Virus genome (UHGV): UHGV-0180488
Reading direction: 5' to 3' (one strand)
Origin: a virus
DNA: 10,275 nucleotides
Every line of letters starts with the position of its first letter. Position 1 is the first letter of the stretch. The notes under the pieces are model-generated. The model searched no databases, had not been told where the DNA came from, and saw only the letters and a program-made list of their open reading frames with translations. Shown piece after piece: positions 1 through 9,931 of the stretch. The position numbers and the translations under genes are program-made.

Positions 1-173
1 ATGCCAATAAGCGTACCGCGCTAAACAGTGCGCTGCTATTTCTACGCCGTAACGGTATACAGGTATATGATTCTCCCGTGCTGGTGGAACTTGCGGTGGG
101 GGCCGCAACTGGTGAAATCCCCGTATCTTCAGTAGCGGAAAAACTACGTGAATTATTTGGTTCCAATATTTGA
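1..173 (+). CDS. doc: Doc toxin (Fic-fold kinase of the phd-doc addiction module), 3' end only; 5' part lies outside the window
   Basis: Frame beginning at nt 3 translates to ...ANKRTALNSALLFLRRNGIQVYDSPVLVELAVGAATGEIPVSSVAEKLRELFGSNI and stops at TGA 171-173. This matches my recollection of the C-terminal half of phage P1 Doc almost residue for residue, including the NKR end of the Fic/Doc motif. Not in the supplied ORF track because it has no start codon in the window. Confidence 0.75.
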   Translation, partial: ANKRTALNSALLFLRRNGIQVYDSPVLVELAVGAATGEIPVSSVAEKLRELFGSNI

Positions 174-176
174 AAA

Positions 177-202
177 GAAGCCCGCTCAACCAGGCGGGCT
201 TC
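177..202 (-). terminator. Intrinsic terminator hairpin closing the minus-strand accessory operon (may also serve doc)
   Basis: Perfect 9-bp stem GAAGCCCGC (177-185) / GCGGGCTTC (194-202) with an 8-nt loop. On the minus strand the stem is followed directly by TTTTCAA. It lies 55 nt downstream of the 268-aa ORF stop and 4 nt after the doc stop. Confidence 0.55.
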
Positions 203-256
203 CTACTATCACTCAATGATTTTTTCTGCTGTCAGCCAGCTAATTCGGTGATGTTT

Positions 257-1063
257 TTAGGCGTCAGCATCAGCATCCTCCGCTACCTCTGCTTCCACAT
301 CAGCCACGGCTTCATCGGACGGTTCTTCTTTGGCCTGATCTGCAATCGCCGCACGGCATTTCGCCCTGGCTGTAGCGATTGCTTCAGCTCGCACATCATC
401 AGGAATCGTTGACGTGATATACATATCCAGTTCTTCGGCGCGGAACACTGTTTGGTCCAGATATTCGCGTAGCATCCAGGTAAATTCGAAATCACACGCG
501 ATAATCTCTGCGCTACCTTCCGCACCATTAGGGAAGTGGATAAACGCTTGTTTGGCTAAACCAATAACACGACATGCGGTTGCCAAAACAGCGACAACCA
601 GGTTTACATTTTCACACGCTACGGGCTGATTAACGCCGGAGATTACTCCATTTAACTGTCGGTTATATGGAAGGTAGTTTGAGATGCGTTCTACGCGCCA
701 TGTGCCAGTCAGGCTGCCATTTCTAAAGATGATTGGGGTAACGGACAGCCCAAGCTCGCGGATAAGTCGTTGCGCTATAGCATGATCATTAAACAGGTCC
801 AATGCTACACATTCGAAAGACTGTGCAAGGGTAAACAGTTCTTCCAGAGAGTAGTCTTTTCCTCTGGCTGTAATATGACGACGAGCGCCGTTATCTGCAT
901 CGCTCCATATAGCTACGCCATGCTCTTCATTCAGTTCTTCATTAAAGCCGAGATACGTCATGATAGTGCGTTCAATCGTGTCAAACGGCAGTGACATGTC
1001 GGCGTTAACAGCCACCAGCAGGCCATTACGCAAGCGGTATTGAATTGCTTTAGTATTTTCCAC
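257..1063 (-). CDS. Hypothetical protein, 268 aa, with a poly-acidic C-terminal tail
   Basis: Long ORF with a GTG start preceded by GGTGGAG 9 nt upstream; its start is 6 nt after the stop of the upstream gene. C-terminus EEPSDEAVADVEAEVAEDADADA. I recognise no catalytic motif. Confidence 0.7.
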   Translation of the reverse strand: MENTKAIQYRLRNGLLVAVNADMSLPFDTIERTIMTYLGFNEELNEEHGVAIWSDADNGARRHITARGKDYSLEELFTLAQSFECVALDLFNDHAIAQRLIRELGLSVTPIIFRNGSLTGTWRVERISNYLPYNRQLNGVISGVNQPVACENVNLVVAVLATACRVIGLAKQAFIHFPNGAEGSAEIIACDFEFTWMLREYLDQTVFRAEELDMYITSTIPDDVRAEAIATARAKCRAAIADQAKEEPSDEAVADVEAEVAEDADADA

Positions 1064-1069
1064 GTTAAA

Positions 1070-1738
1070 TCACTCCACCACAAACCAGTCACATGCCAGT
1101 AAGTCGCCTACAGAAGGAACCCACGGAACAACTACACCTTGTGCATTTTTTAAGGCGAAATAAGCACCATACGGAACGAGGTCGCCGGGGAAATATCCCT
1201 TAATGGCTTCCATTCGTGCCGGGTACTGTCCTTCAGGAACCAGCCAGCAGAATTGGTTTTCGCCGTTCCACCCGCGCCGGGCAACTTTCTTGCCATCCTT
1301 CAGCCACATCAGCGCGTCAGAAAAGTCGGCTGCTTCAAGGTCGATTTCTTCTTGTTTGGTAATGATGCCACCGGCAGCAATAGTTACGTCCCTGGCTGTA
1401 ATGAATGTCACACCATTGTGATCAATGCTGAGCGATACCCCATTTTCGAAGAAGTCGTTAGTCCGACTAAAGCCTTCTTCAAATGTTTTTTCTGGTGAAT
1501 AGGACAGACAACCATCTTGATCAACGAGCAGATACCCGCCAATCTCTGGTCTGTATTTTTGTAGAAACATTGCATCAACACGAACCGTTACGCCTTTTGG
1601 CTCAGTGACTGTGATATCACCCCAAAGAGTAAATGTGCCAATCAGATTGATCTTTTTGATTTTCGATGCGCGAATGATTCCGTGGTGTTTGTACTTAGGG
1701 AGCGTCTTTAAAAGCTCTTTCGTTGCTATGTTGTCCAT
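1070..1738 (-). CDS. Hypothetical two-domain protein, 222 aa: unknown N-terminal domain fused to a C-terminal DUF2829 (Tad2-like) domain
   Basis: ATG at 1738-1736 preceded by GGGGAAAG. The C-terminal ~84 aa (approx. nt 1070-1324), FSDALMWLKDGKKVARRGWNG...VVPWVPSVGDLLACDWFVVE, fits the DUF2829 pattern as I recall it (G-K-K-V-x-R-x-G-W-N-G near the start, P-W-x-P-S-x-x-D-L-L-A-x-D-W at the end). The N-terminal ~138 aa has no motif I recognise. Confidence 0.8.
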   Translation of the reverse strand: MDNIATKELLKTLPKYKHHGIIRASKIKKINLIGTFTLWGDITVTEPKGVTVRVDAMFLQKYRPEIGGYLLVDQDGCLSYSPEKTFEEGFSRTNDFFENGVSLSIDHNGVTFITARDVTIAAGGIITKQEEIDLEAADFSDALMWLKDGKKVARRGWNGENQFCWLVPEGQYPARMEAIKGYFPGDLVPYGAYFALKNAQGVVVPWVPSVGDLLACDWFVVE

Positions 1739-1800
1739 AGTCTTTCCCCTGCTTAAAACTTTTCGTACTTATGCGGTTGGCGCTTGATTTCAAAGTGGTC

Positions 1801-2247
1801 TTACGATGTGCTACCAAAGCCACCAGCACCACGTTCCGTTTCGTTGAGTTCTTCAGCCTCGACTAGTGAGACTTGTTCAACACGCTCAAAAATGCCTTGC
1901 ATGACAGCCATTCCAGGCTTGAGACAAACGCCTTCCCCGCCGGGATCAGTAATTAGTTTTGCCATGATTTCGCCGCGATAATCGGAGTCGATAATTCCTA
2001 CGCAGTTAGCCAGGCGAGTATGTTTTTTGCAGCCCAATCCGGATCGCGGATAGAGTTTCAGACACCAGCCGGGCGGGATCTCCATAGCCAGTCCGGTATA
2101 CACCCACCAGCTTGAGGAAATTGCACCATTGCTATCGACGCATGGTGTTATTTCAACAGCCTCAAAATCCATTGCTGCCGATCCTGCGGTGGCATAGAAC
2201 GGCAGTTTTGCACCAGGATGCAGGCGCTTCACTTTTACGTTAATCAT
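1801..2247 (-). CDS. dut: dUTP diphosphatase (trimeric dUTPase), 148 aa
   Basis: From the internal ATG at 2247-2245: MINVKVKRLHPGAKLPFYATAGSAAMDF...LYPRSGLGCKK...GIIDSDYRGEI...RGAGGFGSTS, which carries the conserved dUTPase motifs (RSG, G-x-ID-x-DYRGE, C-terminal R-G-x-GGFGS). The 249-aa track ORF 1801..2550 is an upstream extension that overlaps the preceding gene. Start is 2 nt after the stop of the 163-aa ORF. Confidence 0.9.
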   Translation of the reverse strand: MINVKVKRLHPGAKLPFYATAGSAAMDFEAVEITPCVDSNGAISSSWWVYTGLAMEIPPGWCLKLYPRSGLGCKKHTRLANCVGIIDSDYRGEIMAKLITDPGGEGVCLKPGMAVMQGIFERVEQVSLVEAEELNETERGAGGFGSTS

Positions 2248-2731
2248 GCTTCTTTGCTCTTTTGGTGAAGGTGTAAATTCGACGTTTAATATGCGGGGCA
2301 GTCGGTACGGATACGTTTGTGGATTCGATAATGCCTTGCTCTTCAAGAGAGCGAACGGCACGCAGGAACTGAGACGCATCGCCGCCACCGGACAGCCAGA
2401 ATTTACGGGCGTAAATGCTGCCGTTACGGATAATTTCAGCAACGACACGAGACTGGGTTTGTGTTTCACGATAGGCAAACAGTTGCCGGGCTTCTTCCGG
2501 CGTAATAGCCAGTTGATAGCCTTTCCCCTTATGGGCGCGAAGAAAACCAAACGACACCAGGTGTTTTAGTTCCCTGCGCGTAGTCTCATAACCGTATTCC
2601 TGTATCTGGAGATTGAGATCGGCGGGCTTTAGCCATGCTTCCGGCGACTCAGTAAGAAGCACCAGCAACTTACCGGATAGCTCAGGGGAGGAAGACGGGT
2701 AACAGTTAAGAGATGGGTAATAGTGTTTCAT
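2240..2731 (-). CDS. Hypothetical protein, 163 aa, probably two winged-helix-like DNA-binding modules
   Basis: ATG at 2731-2729 with AAGGGGG 6 nt upstream, overlapping the stop of the upstream 114-aa ORF (ATGA). The pattern of hydrophobic helices followed by G-K-G-Y and basic stretches (FGFLRAHKGKGYQL; IYARKFWLSGGG) suggests wHTH folds. This is inference, not a motif match. Confidence 0.7.
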   Translation of the reverse strand: MKHYYPSLNCYPSSSPELSGKLLVLLTESPEAWLKPADLNLQIQEYGYETTRRELKHLVSFGFLRAHKGKGYQLAITPEEARQLFAYRETQTQSRVVAEIIRNGSIYARKFWLSGGGDASQFLRAVRSLEEQGIIESTNVSVPTAPHIKRRIYTFTKRAKKHD

Positions 2732-3072
2732 TTGCGCCCCCTTACTGGATAATGAGAGCGGGCATCAACCGGAGCAATGAATCCGGTTGTAGGGCGGGAA
2801 AATACGAGATCAATCTTCTCGGTCATGGCGCGATAGTTTTCCTGATAGTGGGCCAGGAGTTTTTCAGCAGCAATGACGGTTACTCGCCGGACGTAGCTTT
2901 CAGCTTCGCCCAGGTTTGACCATTTCTTTTCGAGGGTAAGTACAGGTACGGTCTCAAGCCCTGTCATGATTCCAAACACCACGACAGCCTCGCCGCGCTT
3001 AACGCCAGCAGCAAAGGTTACGGTGTAACCGTCAACCGTGAAACGCCTTGATTCCGTGATACGACTCTGCAA
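2728..3072 (-). CDS. Hypothetical protein, 114 aa if the TTG start is used; first gene of the accessory operon
   Basis: ORF in the gap between dre and the 163-aa gene. The only plausible start is TTG at 3072-3070, preceded by CTGGGGG; an internal ATG at residue 36 would give 79 aa. Its stop overlaps the next gene's start. Confidence 0.5.
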   Translation of the reverse strand: MQSRITESRRFTVDGYTVTFAAGVKRGEAVVVFGIMTGLETVPVLTLEKKWSNLGEAESYVRRVTVIAAEKLLAHYQENYRAMTEKIDLVFSRPTTGFIAPVDARSHYPVRGRK

Positions 3073-3128
3073 AGTACCCCCAGAAAAAACAGGCGTACTT
3101 TACAGTAAAATGCAGTGTTAAAAAAGGG

Positions 3129-3138
3129 TGTTAGAAAT
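3129..3138 (-). promoter_or_regulatory. Operator-like motif TGTTAGAAAT between the dre stop and the accessory operon
   Basis: One of five copies of the 8-mer GTTAGAAA in the window, all intergenic. It sits in the 72-bp gap upstream of the 114-aa ORF, beside a TTAACA hexamer. Confidence 0.3.
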
Positions 3139-3144
3139 TTAATC

Positions 3145-4173
3145 TCATGAATCCATGAGGCGGCTATTGGCACCTGCTGTCACACCGCCACGACGAAGAT
3201 AACGCATCAGTGTTTCGGGCTTCTTCCATGTACCTTCCTGCATAATTTCAACCAAAGACACCTGTTTTTCAGCCATATCTATGGCGGCACCAACACGCGC
3301 ACTGTGGCCTGTCCACGTCCGGTAACGGCCTTTATTGGGGGTGGCATCACTCTTACCCAGCAGCGCCCAGGCGTCACTGAAAATCTTCTCCATCGCGGGC
3401 ACGGTTAATGGCGTGGTGGTGATCCGCGCTTTGTTGCTCCGGTGTACTGGCGGGAAAAGTATCGCATCCGGGTGCTCACGTAGTCCGGACGCGTCCAGCC
3501 AGTCATTGAGAACCGCAGTTGTCCAGCGGGAGAGCACCTTATCAAGTCCGGCGGCGGTCGTGATGGTTTTGGTGTGGGATACGTGAAGCGTTACAGTGTC
3601 ACCAGTCTGTTCCAGATCGCGAACACGCACGCGGGACATTTCAGCCATACGCAACAGGGTATTGTAGGCCAGGAACAGAAAAGCCCGGTTGCGCAGATCC
3701 ACCAGCCTGTCAGAGCGGGAGAGCAGCACGTCGAGCAGTTTCAGGTCATCCCAGCGCAGGGGCACTGCCTGGCCTGTGCGTTCGCCTTTTTCGGTTGCAG
3801 CTTCGCGCCGGATGCGCCGCATCGCCAGGGATACGCTTTTGTCATCAGAGAGTTGCGGCAGTCCGCATTGTGACAACAGCATATTGAGCATGGCGTAATG
3901 CTTTTCAATGGTGGTTGAAGCCAGATCCGCATCATGCAGTTGAAGCAGGTATTCGCGGGCAGCTTCCGGGGAGATCGGAAACCACGCAAGACCACGAGCG
4001 TGGCACCATCGCGCCCAGGAGTGAAAGACCAGGCGCAGATCGCGCAGTGTATTAGGTGAGTAAGCACCCTGGTCATTAAGGAACTGCATGAAATTTTTGG
4101 CGGCTTCCTGGTACTCAGCACCAATATCACGAAGAAACATGCCAGGATTACCGGAGATAATAAGTTTACTCAT
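3145..4173 (-). CDS. dre: Cre-family tyrosine site-specific recombinase, Dre-like, 342 aa
   Basis: The translation aligns along its length with P1 Cre as I recall it (e.g. AYNTLLRMAE vs AYNTLLRIAE; GHSARVGAAIDMAEKQVSLVEIMQEGTWKKPETLMRYLR vs GHSARVGAARDMARAGVSIPEIMQAGGWTNVNIVMNYIR, with the catalytic Tyr context conserved), at roughly 40-45% identity by eye. A rox-like site rather than loxP lies 153 bp upstream, which is why I call it Dre (the Cre homologue of phage D6). ATG at 4173-4171 with AGAGGTGA upstream. Confidence 0.92.
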   Translation of the reverse strand: MSKLIISGNPGMFLRDIGAEYQEAAKNFMQFLNDQGAYSPNTLRDLRLVFHSWARWCHARGLAWFPISPEAAREYLLQLHDADLASTTIEKHYAMLNMLLSQCGLPQLSDDKSVSLAMRRIRREAATEKGERTGQAVPLRWDDLKLLDVLLSRSDRLVDLRNRAFLFLAYNTLLRMAEMSRVRVRDLEQTGDTVTLHVSHTKTITTAAGLDKVLSRWTTAVLNDWLDASGLREHPDAILFPPVHRSNKARITTTPLTVPAMEKIFSDAWALLGKSDATPNKGRYRTWTGHSARVGAAIDMAEKQVSLVEIMQEGTWKKPETLMRYLRRGGVTAGANSRLMDS

Positions 4174-4316
4174 GTAATCATTTCACCTCTATAAATTGGT
4201 GTCGCTACGCGAAAAAACAAAAAATGACAGGCTAGTTATCCGTGAGAATTTAAAATTTAAGCCCTTGATTCGAACCATGACTTTTTGAGTCTGTCAATAC
4301 TGATCGTTTGATCATT

Positions 4317-4344
4317 ATTATATACTAACTTTAAATAATGCCAA
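4317..4344 (-). promoter_or_regulatory. Putative sigma70 promoter for dre, with its -35 inside the rox-like site
   Basis: On the minus strand: -35 TTGGCA (4344-4339), 16-bp spacer, -10 TATAAT (4322-4317). Predicted start near 4310, inside the GATC pair at 4302-4305 and 4310-4313. Sequence-only prediction. Confidence 0.35.
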
Positions 4345-4357
4345 TTATCTAAAGTTA
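4326..4357. other. rox-like recombination target site for the Dre-like recombinase
   Basis: TAACTTTAAATAAT (4326-4339), spacer GCCA (4340-4343), ATTATCTAAAGTTA (4344-4357). This is the rox site as I remember it (TAACTTTAAATAATGCCAATTATTTAAAGTTA) with one difference, C instead of T at 4349, which makes the arms imperfectly symmetric. Flanking C (4325) and G (4358) extend the palindrome. Confidence 0.85.
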
Positions 4358-4509
4358 GAAAGGGAGAAAATTTTTTTGAAAAAAAGGATCAAGTGATCAA
4401 AAAAGAAACCGTGCTATTAGTGGTAGTTAGACGCTTAAACCCAGGATTTTGAAGAAGGTTTTCTAAGAAGAACAATAAAAAATTCCATGTTGATCCTTTA
4501 CTCATCGTG

Positions 4510-4541: not shown

Positions 4542-4551
4542 TGTTAGAAAA
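4542..4551 (+). promoter_or_regulatory. Operator-like motif TGTTAGAAAA over the predicted c1 transcription start
   Basis: Copy of the GTTAGAAA 8-mer lying 19-27 nt upstream of the c1-like ATG and just downstream of the predicted -10, a position typical of an autoregulatory operator. Confidence 0.35.
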
Positions 4552-4569: not shown

Positions 4570-5607
4570 ATGAATAAAAGAACAATCGAGAAAGAGTACA
4601 AACAGTTCCGGTCTGTTGCTGAACGTTGGAAGGAGCTGGTGGTATCAAACTCAGTGTTCCATGACACCAGTTATAACGGAGAGGAATTCCGTCATGTTGC
4701 TTTGACACATGATCCAGACGTCTTGAAAGAAGCCGAAGAATGCCTGGTCGCCTGGAAAGCATTTGTGGACGTATGCCGCAATGCTGGTGGGAAAAAGCTG
4801 AATATCGTTGAGACAGTATATCTTCCGATCCCATTCATCATTGAGGACACGAATCAAAGTACACACATTGTCGTATCTACAGCTTCGACTACCAGAACGT
4901 TCACTCGCGAGAGTTTGCTGAAAAAGTACGATAATGTCATTAAGAAAAGTAAAAAAAGCCCTATCTTTTCTCAGGTCGTAGATGCCCTTGAAAAAGAAAG
5001 ACATTTCTTTGCAATGGAGCCGGAAGGCGAACTCTATCGCGCACGAAAAGATGACTATACCGATGTGGTGCTGACCTCTGATCTCACATCTGACAACACC
5101 CTGTCTCGCTTAAGAGTGGGTGCGCACGGGGCGCTGGTGTTCTCACGCAATAAAGAATTGAAGATCCCTGTGGTTAATAACGTAGATGAACGCCGTAGTA
5201 TTACCGTTTATTCCGGTGTGAAGCCTATCCCTTGTGGCCCGCTGGGCGATTTTAGTCTGTATCGTGTGAACGACATCACCAGGAGTCAGCCAAGCTATGT
5301 GGCTAAGGCCTATATTCTGCGTAGCATTGAGTCCAGAAACCTGAGTTTTAACAACAAAAGCCAGGCGCTTCTGAACTCTACGCCGCCTGAGATCCTCCAG
5401 GTCATTGAAAGAAAGGTGAACGCGGCGAGAGAGGCGCTTATCCGCCTGGAAAAAATGGACATGGAGTTGATTGATGTCATGATGGCATCAGGCGATGACC
5501 TGACAGGTATCCGGCTGACCGATGCACGCAAGAAATACGGCAAAGAAATTGAGGAACGATACGGATACACGTTCAATCAAACAATGTCAGCAACAAAACT
5601 TCGTTAA
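4570..5607 (+). CDS. c1: C1-like phage repressor of lysogeny, 345 aa
   Basis: Position matches the P1/D6 layout (convergent with pacB, divergent from the lox/rox-recombinase unit). Local matches to P1 C1 as I recall it: LNIVETVYLPIPFII vs LNIPKTILYPVPNIL, VNNVDERRSITVYSGVKPI vs INGEFEKAKFSLYDSIEPI, SLYRVNDI vs KIYRLADI. Overall identity is low (perhaps ~30%) and the protein is about 60 aa longer than P1 C1. Confidence 0.7.
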   Translation: MNKRTIEKEYKQFRSVAERWKELVVSNSVFHDTSYNGEEFRHVALTHDPDVLKEAEECLVAWKAFVDVCRNAGGKKLNIVETVYLPIPFIIEDTNQSTHIVVSTASTTRTFTRESLLKKYDNVIKKSKKSPIFSQVVDALEKERHFFAMEPEGELYRARKDDYTDVVLTSDLTSDNTLSRLRVGAHGALVFSRNKELKIPVVNNVDERRSITVYSGVKPIPCGPLGDFSLYRVNDITRSQPSYVAKAYILRSIESRNLSFNNKSQALLNSTPPEILQVIERKVNAAREALIRLEKMDMELIDVMMASGDDLTGIRLTDARKKYGKEIEERYGYTFNQTMSATKLR

Positions 5608-8963: not shown

Positions 8964-9356
8964 TTACCATCTGCTTAAACGAACAATATGTCTTACTTTT
9001 GCGGACCACTTCCCTTTGGTTTTGTTGACTACCGCCTGCGCCAGCCTTAACTCGCTTTCATAATCAGCCTTACGCCCATCGTTTTCCGACAGCAAATAGC
9101 CTTCAACTTGTGGTACGGTCAGATAGTCCTGATCAACATTAAGTGGTCCTGTGGGTGCTCTGAACGGCGTTAGTTGCTTTGCGTTCCAGTTAAATCGAAT
9201 ACGTACGTCACGAACGGCAAGGGTTGCATACCCATGCACGGTACTTTCGTAACCTAGTTTTGTTTCGCCTGCATGACATGACGTGATTTTGCAGTCAAGC
9301 AACTTCCAGTCCATTTCCTTAGCTTGTGCAACTGTTAGCTTCTGCTCTTCGTACAT
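8964..9356 (-). CDS. Hypothetical protein, about 130 aa
   Basis: ORF on the minus strand. I prefer the ATG at 9356-9354 (GGGAGG 7 nt upstream) to the TTG one codon earlier used in the track. The ATG overlaps the TGA of the upstream gene by 1 nt. Confidence 0.6.
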   Translation of the reverse strand: MYEEQKLTVAQAKEMDWKLLDCKITSCHAGETKLGYESTVHGYATLAVRDVRIRFNWNAKQLTPFRAPTGPLNVDQDYLTVPQVEGYLLSENDGRKADYESELRLAQAVVNKTKGKWSAKVRHIVRLSRW

Positions 9357-9931
9357 CAAAATGCCTCCCAGTCAGTTGCCATAATGTCTACGCTGCTGGC
9401 AAACCAGTCAGAACGTGCTTGCAAAGCACCATCCATCATTACCAGACGTGGAAGCACGGAGACTTTGACGCCCTTTTGCACGTTGAATATTTCTTCCGGA
9501 AGAAAGCTAACCATCTTGTCCTTACTTTCAATGCAGCCGGGTTCAAGTGATATGTACTGTCCTTTAGGCCAGGATTTTCGGCGTGCGTCTAATCCGTTCA
9601 TTAACCAGTGGATTGCGACAGAAAAAGGAATGTTTGCTTTGGCAATGGACAGTCCACCAGCGACAGCCTGTTTATGAAACTTGAGGAGTTTTACAGCGGC
9701 CTCGGCAAGCGCAACATAAGGTTCTGGATGGACTTCGGTAAGGCTGCATCCACGAACTGTTACTGTCACAGCATGGGAATCGCCTTCTGATGCCGTTTCG
9801 ATGTTGACCCCTTTGTTTGACAGTGCGTGATACAAAGCGTCACCCATGCATGACCAGCGTTCATTGCGTCCAATGAACTCACTCAGGATGCGATCCTGCT
9901 CTGTATACGTTGCATTAGTCAAAACAGTCAT
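9356..9931 (-). CDS. Hypothetical protein, 191 aa
   Basis: ORF with a strong ribosome-binding site (AAAGGAGAGG before the ATG at 9931-9929), coupled to the next gene. No motif recognised. Confidence 0.65.
   Translation of the reverse strand: MTVLTNATYTEQDRILSEFIGRNERWSCMGDALYHALSNKGVNIETASEGDSHAVTVTVRGCSLTEVHPEPYVALAEAAVKLLKFHKQAVAGGLSIAKANIPFSVAIHWLMNGLDARRKSWPKGQYISLEPGCIESKDKMVSFLPEEIFNVQKGVKVSVLPRLVMMDGALQARSDWFASSVDIMATDWEAF

Follow-up and report, generated by a model that had tools for sequence, protein, structure and literature searches.

Proteins of the Tad2 family act as sponges for the nucleotide-derived signals of bacterial immune systems. Tad2 sequesters 1''-3' glycocyclic ADP-ribose (gcADPR; type I Thoeris) (10.1101/2023.05.01.538930), and ModTad2 sequesters histidine-ADP-ribose (His-ADPR; type II Thoeris) (10.1101/2024.01.03.573942). 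Further ligands of the family are N7-cyclic ADP-ribose (N7-cADPR; type IV Thoeris) and cyclic UMP and CMP (cUMP/cCMP; Pycsar), the last two being bound also by ModTad2 (10.1101/2025.08.24.671296), while HgmTad2 binds cyclic dinucleotides via a β2-β5 insertion (10.1101/2023.11.15.567273). Since 2023, the domain DUF2829 and Tad2 have been treated as one and the same. Among the phage-plasmids, P1 carries isaA, which is nonessential by CRISPR interference (PMC10695390), and P1-like phage-plasmids have eight variable regions, among them the isaA-IS1-isaB segment (PMC9603915). In the published genome of the related phage D6, five genes near dre are annotated as orf113 to orf117.

Here we describe the corresponding five-gene interval in a 10,275-nt (10.3-kb) stretch of virus genome UHGV-0180488, hereafter called the window, which its nucleotide similarities identify as part of a D6-like plasmid prophage (phage-plasmid). 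In this interval we find what is probably a composite accessory operon, in which a fixed core of unassigned genes is combined with dut and with one fast-turnover counter-defense gene of a known family, Tad2.

The fourth gene encodes a Tad2-family fusion protein

Residues 138 to 221 of the 222-amino-acid (aa) product of the fourth gene matched Pfam PF11195 at 79.9 bits, against a cutoff of 25. This family, DUF2829, is now named "Thoeris anti-defense 2-like domain" in Pfam. Searches of PDB sequences with the same protein matched five solved Tad2 proteins, including ModTad2, HgmTad2/AcrIIA7, SPO1 Tad2 and SptTad2. The phmmer match to ModTad2 (9eib/8v3e) had an E value of 7e-21, with 40 of 89 residues identical.

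We built an AlphaFold2 monomer model of the protein on 49 homologues. It contains a small, β-rich N-terminal barrel (predicted local distance difference test [pLDDT] score of 75 to 89), a linker modeled with low confidence, and a confidently modeled Tad2-like domain, which together with the PF11195 match bears out the original prediction that this was a DUF2829 fusion. Residues W157 and W206, invariant in the 49 homologues, align with W25 and W73 of SPO1 Tad2, both of which stack on the ligand (10.1101/2023.05.01.538930). All of the computational membership tests that we ran agreed, and the 222-aa protein very probably belongs to the Tad2 family.

By homology, the Tad2 domain would tetramerize and sequester immune signals derived from nucleotides, keeping the host effector from ever being activated. 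As ligands, gcADPR or His-ADPR made by Thoeris TIR (Toll/interleukin-1 receptor) proteins are candidates, and cUMP/cCMP or cyclic dinucleotides might also be bound, via a variable β2-β3 insertion.

The window also encodes a second Tad2-like protein, of 191 aa, two genes upstream of lpa (PF11195 at 43.4 bits; phrog_7362). It is a homologue of the D6 orf6 product, and the 222-aa protein and this one have unrelated N-terminal halves. PGAP gives a homologue of this second protein the name "MW1434 family type I TA system toxin."

The Tad2 slot turns over within a fixed gene order

We looked across relatives of the window to see which parts of the interval are conserved. The genes orf117, orf116, dut and isaA lie in a fixed order beside dre in D6, pHX138, pEC213_2, p1_000533 and four further contigs, and a Raoultella-type element, about 55% identical at the protein level, shares this order. 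The Tad2 gene behaves differently. It is precisely absent in pK91, and in the Raoultella-type element (L017:6980-7098) the spacer between dut and isaA consists of a decayed 119-nt vestige of it (LMWLK..VAR and SQTDLLADDWRVIN*). In D6 and pHX138, the N-terminal barrel has been lost by internal deletion. In P0066 (E. coli; 241 aa) a deletion has created an in-frame dUTPase-Tad2 fusion, joining motif V of dut (ERGAGG) to the Tad2 linker (GGITTQQEE). There are at least three different β2-β3 insertion cassettes in the Tad2 gene, one class of which has flanks 98 to 100% identical to those of the window allele. The ratio of nonsynonymous to synonymous substitution rates (dN/dS) of the Tad2 gene, 0.39 to 0.57, is the highest in the operon, compared with 0.05 to 0.22 for its neighbors. 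On these comparisons, the Tad2 slot is a turnover hotspot, and the arms-race signature is confined to the Tad2 gene.

It had been proposed that such a comparison would reveal whether the interval is a variable hotspot. The Tad2 slot does vary; the block as a whole does not, as orf117, orf116, dut and isaA stay fixed. The original prediction had also named a fixed gene order with housekeeping roles as grounds for abandoning an anti-defense function; the order holds for four of the genes, and a housekeeping role for dut alone.

Synonymous divergence (dS) from D6 is mosaic along the interval, at 0.7 to 3 for dre, orf117 and orf116 and about 0.2 for dut, tad2 and isaA, which indicates a recombination breakpoint near the orf116/dut junction. 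We counted 166 plasmid records with the orf117-to-dut block, of which 121 have it complete and about 45 have a remnant; the Tad2-fusion gene alone occurs in 229.

Two of the relatives carry additional genes nearby. Downstream of isaA in the Raoultella-type element, the doc region is replaced by cargo that includes an ars operon and an acetyltransferase. In p1_000533 (L003:1709-2803), an extra gene after isaA encodes a 364-aa protein whose N terminus resembles that of PacB (the terminase large subunit); the region matching the GHGTGKSS stretch of PacB differs.

The remaining genes encode an IsaA homologue, a dUTPase and two small lineage-restricted proteins

The interval corresponds gene for gene to D6 orf117, orf116, orf115 (dut), orf114 (DUF2829) and orf113 ("similar to P1 isaA"). 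The 268-aa product of the last gene was 47% identical to P1 IsaA over 262 aa (E value of 5e-86) and matched phrog_2326 at 2e-133, identifying it as a full-length homologue of the P1 IsaA family. The earlier statement that none of the five resembles P1 genes is thus wrong for this protein. When all five were compared by BLASTP with a set of P1 proteins (cra, cre, c8, ref, mat, lxc, ulx, ssb, isaB and hxr), the only match was that to IsaA. The description of the 268-aa product as an acidic-tail protein suits the window copy but not the family, in which the tail is not conserved. We considered the acidic tail as a DNA mimic but, since many homologues lack it, rejected this as a property of the family. 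Sequence and profile searches of the PDB with the IsaA homologue returned nothing significant. Its gene would travel with the Tad2 gene as a two-gene cassette, which is also found after ssb in P1-like phages.

The third gene had been called a dUTPase, and its 148-aa product matched Pfam PF00692 at 9e-14 and the NCBIfam equivalog NF001862 at 118.2 bits (cutoff of 103). It contains the motifs PRSG, GIIDSDYRGE and RGAGGFGST, and with the equivalog score and motif V both present it is identified as a trimeric dUTPase. In the window only, a GAA-to-TAA change at 1803..1801 (GAA in D6, pK91, pHX138 and pEC213_2) removes a 16-aa C-terminal tail beyond motif V, leaving motif V in place. The gene dut encodes a standard enzyme of nucleotide metabolism, and its product would lower dUTP while phage DNA is synthesized.

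The first two genes yielded less. The orf117 protein belongs to phrog_1968 (6e-40) and had no Pfam, NCBIfam, PDB or PADLOC match; exhaustive phmmer searching of 1.84 billion representative proteins found only 13 clusters, all of them lacking a Pfam domain. Its dN/dS against D6 was 0.22. The orf116 protein belongs to phrog_6669 (3e-73), with 11 homologues detected and a dN/dS of 0.07. All of its winged-helix matches were below threshold (PadR, 0.061; Rrf2, 0.13; EutK, 0.6; and the Trp repressor), faint hints that it may possibly consist of two DNA-binding winged-helix domains. PDB sequence and profile searches with the two proteins gave nothing significant. By these searches, orf117 and orf116 represent tiny lineage-restricted families without an assignable fold; in the operon they would form the core whose order is fixed next to dre. 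Remote-homology searching, which had been suggested for each of the five proteins, assigned the Tad2, Dut and IsaA families and gave no domain or PDB match above threshold for orf117 and orf116.

The original prediction took the operon as a whole for a candidate anti-defense or auxiliary module. For the Tad2 gene this holds; dut encodes an ordinary enzyme, and for the other three genes we found nothing for or against it. Going further, the whole block might be a dedicated anti-defense island in which orf117, orf116, IsaA and perhaps Dut each neutralize an immune system, with orf116 as an Aca-like regulator. The genes would be cotranscribed with a Tad2 sponge behind a putative repressor operator, the three unassigned proteins are small, phage restricted and without housekeeping homologues, and P1 isaA is both nonessential (PMC10695390) and located in a variable region near the dar anti-restriction genes (PMC9603915). 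An island requires at least two neighboring genes whose anti-defense identity is demonstrated or follows from their family, however, and judged by similarity only the Tad2 gene qualifies, the other four having no such matches: orf117, orf116, dut and isaA resemble no known anti-defense protein or fold. Unlike Tad2, they also keep their order and are strongly constrained by purifying selection even between deeply diverged relatives. With only guilt by association in its favor, we regard an island as unlikely. We see a somewhat better, if still small, chance that the Tad2-IsaA cassette, possibly with orf117 and orf116, could encode undescribed counter-defense activities. If so, the sponge might be extended or complemented by the N-terminal barrel or by IsaA, the β2-β3 cassettes swapped among alleles that are otherwise 98 to 100% identical might mark specificities for still-unknown enterobacterial signals, and the P1/D6-like phage-plasmids would offer a natural series of alleles in which to look for new immune signals.

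The operon lies between an operator-like site and a terminator

As had been claimed, the interval holds five co-oriented open reading frames (ORFs), and their lengths agreed with those given (Table 1). All five are intact in D6 and in the phage-type relatives that we inspected. This conservation, together with dN/dS values of 0.07 to 0.57 (against D6 and pEC213_2), shows that they are real genes under purifying selection and not chance ORFs. The claim that four of five junctions are tight was overstated for the window, where only three are (the two overlaps and the 6-nt gap in Table 1). The gap between dut and the Tad2 gene is 14 nt in four relatives retaining the Tad2 gene and is longer in the window because of the window-specific nonsense change in dut.

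TABLE 1 Features of the interval and its surroundings, in window coordinates
Feature	Position	Strand	Details
doc	ends at 173	+	Neighbor on the 3' side of the operon
Intrinsic terminator	165..204	-	From terminator scan; between isaA and doc; ends the operon
isaA homologue	257..1063	-	268 aa; GTG start; acidic tail
Junction, 222-aa gene to 268-aa gene			6-nt gap
DUF2829/Tad2-like fusion gene	1070..1738	-	222 aa
N-terminal small β-barrel	about aa 14-93		β-rich in AlphaFold2 model
Linker	aa 95-134		Low confidence in model
Tad2-like sponge domain	1073..1339 (aa 134-222)	-	Confident in model
Junction, dut to 222-aa gene			62-nt gap
dut	1801..2247	-	148 aa; trimeric dUTPase
Junction, orf116 to dut			8-nt overlap
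orf116-like gene	2240..2731	-	163 aa
Junction, orf117 to orf116			4-nt overlap (ATGA)
orf117-like gene	2728..3072	-	114 aa; TTG start
TAAAGT	3097..3102	-	Possible -10 element of a weak promoter; T-rich -35 region
Junction, dre to orf117			72-nt gap
C1-type operator-like site	3128..3143	+	GTGTTAGAAATTTAAT; directly after the dre stop (3145), before the first gene of the operon
dre-like tyrosine recombinase gene	3145..4173	-	Pfam Phage_integrase; 89% aa identity to D6 Dre; upstream of the operon, same orientation
rox-like inverted repeat	4317..4358		15-nt arms, 4-nt spacer, one arm mismatch
C1-like repressor gene	4570..5607		345 aa
Second Tad2-like gene	9356..9931	-	191 aa

The operon had been drawn from the dre stop to a terminator beside doc, and we found that terminator by folding and by its conservation in relatives. 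Its hairpin (175..204, minus strand) is followed by the U-run UUCUUUUC and has a ΔG of -21.4 kcal/mol and a z score of -3.55. At the other end, the operon would start downstream of dre, behind a C1-type operator. The 3' end of dre has no convincing terminator, as a hairpin flagged by the scan at the dre stop is weak and not conserved in relatives; transcriptional read-through from dre into the operon is possible.

The 9-mer core of the operator-like site, TGTTAGAAA, occurs four times in the window, where 0.14 copies are expected. All four copies are intergenic, lying after dre, 14 nt before the start of the c1-like gene, and as an inverted pair before lpa (the D6-type motif at 4542, 8934 and 8955, besides the site after dre). 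In the complete D6 genome the core is present in 12 copies, against 0.9 expected, nearly all of them intergenic and including sites upstream of c1 and ref, the genes that in P1 are both C1 controlled. The copy that follows dre is identical in five relatives despite the divergent spacer around it, and the core TTTCTAACAC is kept even in the Raoultella-type relative, the rest of whose spacer is unrelated. Written out, the motif at the 12 mostly intergenic D6 sites is (A/G)TGTTAGAAAA(C/T)TAAT. When we scanned the window with the P1 C1 operator consensus, ATTGCTCTAATAAATTT, allowing up to three mismatches, there were no matches, indicating that the operator sequence is of a D6 type.

The 345-aa repressor-like gene gave a weak match to the NCBIfam model phage_rep_C1, and a homologue of its product carries PF27008, Phage_P7_repressor_C1. 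Dispersed, asymmetric, intergenic operator-like sites, one of them upstream of c1, thus accompany a C1-like gene in the manner of a P1-type C1 regulon, and the dispersed motif set is probably the C1 regulon of D6-like phages. The original prediction had placed a copy of the putative operator ahead of the operon and had suggested derepression on induction. The copy stands, as part of a conserved and overrepresented motif; derepression is consistent with it and would follow if the C1-like protein bound there, although no promoter passed our scan.

A TAAAGT sequence between the operator-like site and orf117 might be the -10 element of a weak promoter. In five relatives the block CTGTAAAGTAC around it does not change, in contrast to its variable flanks. 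As a candidate of another kind, the -22 box of P1 late promoters was looked for in the dre-orf117 spacer and was absent. Beyond dre, the rox-like repeat overlaps a sigma-70-like promoter (11 of 12 positions; TTGGCA-16-TATAAT, minus strand) directed toward dre.

Weighing the composite operon against other readings

Several points weigh against reading the operon as one that deploys a Tad2 sponge under C1 control. The monomer model of the 222-aa protein had a predicted template modeling (pTM) score of only 0.40, which is due to its flexible linker. About one-quarter of tested sponge homologues failed to inhibit any of seven systems (10.1101/2025.08.24.671296), identities of 45 to 49% do not allow ligand specificity to be deduced, and the link to defense of the 222-aa protein and its P1/D6-like homologues would be one of homology. 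The sigma-70 scan passed no promoter in 3073..3144 or 1739..1800, leaving the spacer between operator and orf117 without a consensus promoter, and the operator-like site is inverted relative to the operon, an arrangement that P1 also tolerates, for example at Omat. Given the missing consensus promoter and the inverted site, C1 control and early timing are features that we infer. Finally, the conjugative hybrid pQnrS1_005237 has lost the entire module through one deletion (window 332..3051) that spares doc and dre. Deletion of the whole module in such D6-derived conjugative hybrids shows that it is dispensable for plasmid life and is silent on any role in infection.

The same deletions bear on whether the operon might mainly serve the prophage-plasmid or its host, through lysogeny near dre/rox, nucleotide-pool hygiene or phage exclusion, with Tad2 as a passenger. 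The fixed synteny with dre, reminiscent of c8, ref and mat after cre in P1, the weak winged-helix matches of orf116 and the metabolic nature of dut would all suit such a role. The module has nevertheless been lost from about 45 plasmid records in which dre and doc remain, so it is not needed for plasmid maintenance; moreover, none of the five proteins matched any PADLOC defense model, which leaves a defense role without support, and none is similar to P1 c8, ref or mat. We consider this reading improbable. Most improbable is that the DUF2829 protein is not a sponge at all but an AcrIIA7-like anti-CRISPR, an MW1434 toxin or a protein with some other role set by its N-terminal barrel: its sequence and fold resemble PDB entries named AcrIIA7 or "Inhibitor of Type II CRISPR-Cas system," the paralogue at 9931..9356 bears an MW1434 toxin name in PGAP, and the function of the N-terminal domain is unassigned, but HgmTad2/AcrIIA7 binds gcADPR and cyclic dinucleotides, Tad2 is reported not to antagonize SpyCas9 (10.1101/2023.11.15.567273), the nearest solved relative is ModTad2 bound to His-ADPR, and the N-terminal domain is repeatedly lost while the Tad2 domain is retained. 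A composite accessory operon with a single counter-defense gene remains the explanation that we favor.

Significance of the locus

In the searchable literature we found no description of the N-terminal barrel fusion and its recurrent loss, of the series of insertion cassettes, of another Tad2-like paralogue (9931..9356) within one element, or of the D6-type operator set. Phage-plasmids like P1 and D6 occur widely in E. coli, Salmonella and Shigella, move resistance genes and serve as genetic tools. The presence of one or two Tad2-family sponges per element would predict which signaling defenses they overcome (Thoeris, Pycsar and CBASS). The natural variants, with the gene absent, truncated or carrying another loop cassette, form a set for mapping sponge specificity, and IsaA, orf116 and orf117 are conserved unknowns that deserve tests.

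Comparison with D6, P1-like phages and solved Tad2 proteins

Nucleotides 1 to 4300 of the window aligned with Escherichia phage D6 at 84.5% identity (88% query coverage) and share its gene order; these nucleotides were 97 to 98% identical to plasmids of Shigella dysenteriae and E. coli. Other genes in the window are pacB, pacA and lpa, and an Rfam scan of the whole window gave no match. The operon, its order, the operator and the terminator are the same in D6 (NC_050154, 87343..89889). The D6 Tad2 protein has only 146 aa, its β-barrel being internally deleted, compared with 222 aa in the window; Dut is full length in D6, with 164 aa as opposed to 148; and D6 has pdcA between doc and isaA.

In P1, isaA follows ssb without a Tad2 gene, and ssb lies behind the C1-controlled operator Ossb. 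In SJ46 the order is ssb, a Tad2 fusion gene (J46_0048), isaA, hxr and ddrB. The Tad2-fusion and IsaA proteins of this pair were 82% and about 49% identical to those of the window, and the 88% nucleotide identity of SJ46 to window positions 1023..1759 was the closest for the window Tad2 copy. The surroundings differ: in P1-like phages the cassette comes after ssb and abuts hxr, ddrB and darA, whereas in the window it sits beside dre and dut.

The closest solved relative of the Tad2 fusion protein is ModTad2, from a Myroides odoratus prophage (PDB 9eib and 8v3e). The window protein carries a 133-aa N-terminal extension (barrel and linker) that the 89-aa ModTad2 lacks and, unlike ModTad2, has an enterobacterial host. 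SPO1 Tad2 (Gp34.65; 8sme) and HgmTad2/AcrIIA7 (8kbi) show weaker similarity (E values of 1e-9 and 1e-11). They have the same DUF2829 fold, with the equivalents of W25 and W73 conserved, but their insertions, which determine the second pocket (10.1101/2023.11.15.567273), differ from those of the window protein.

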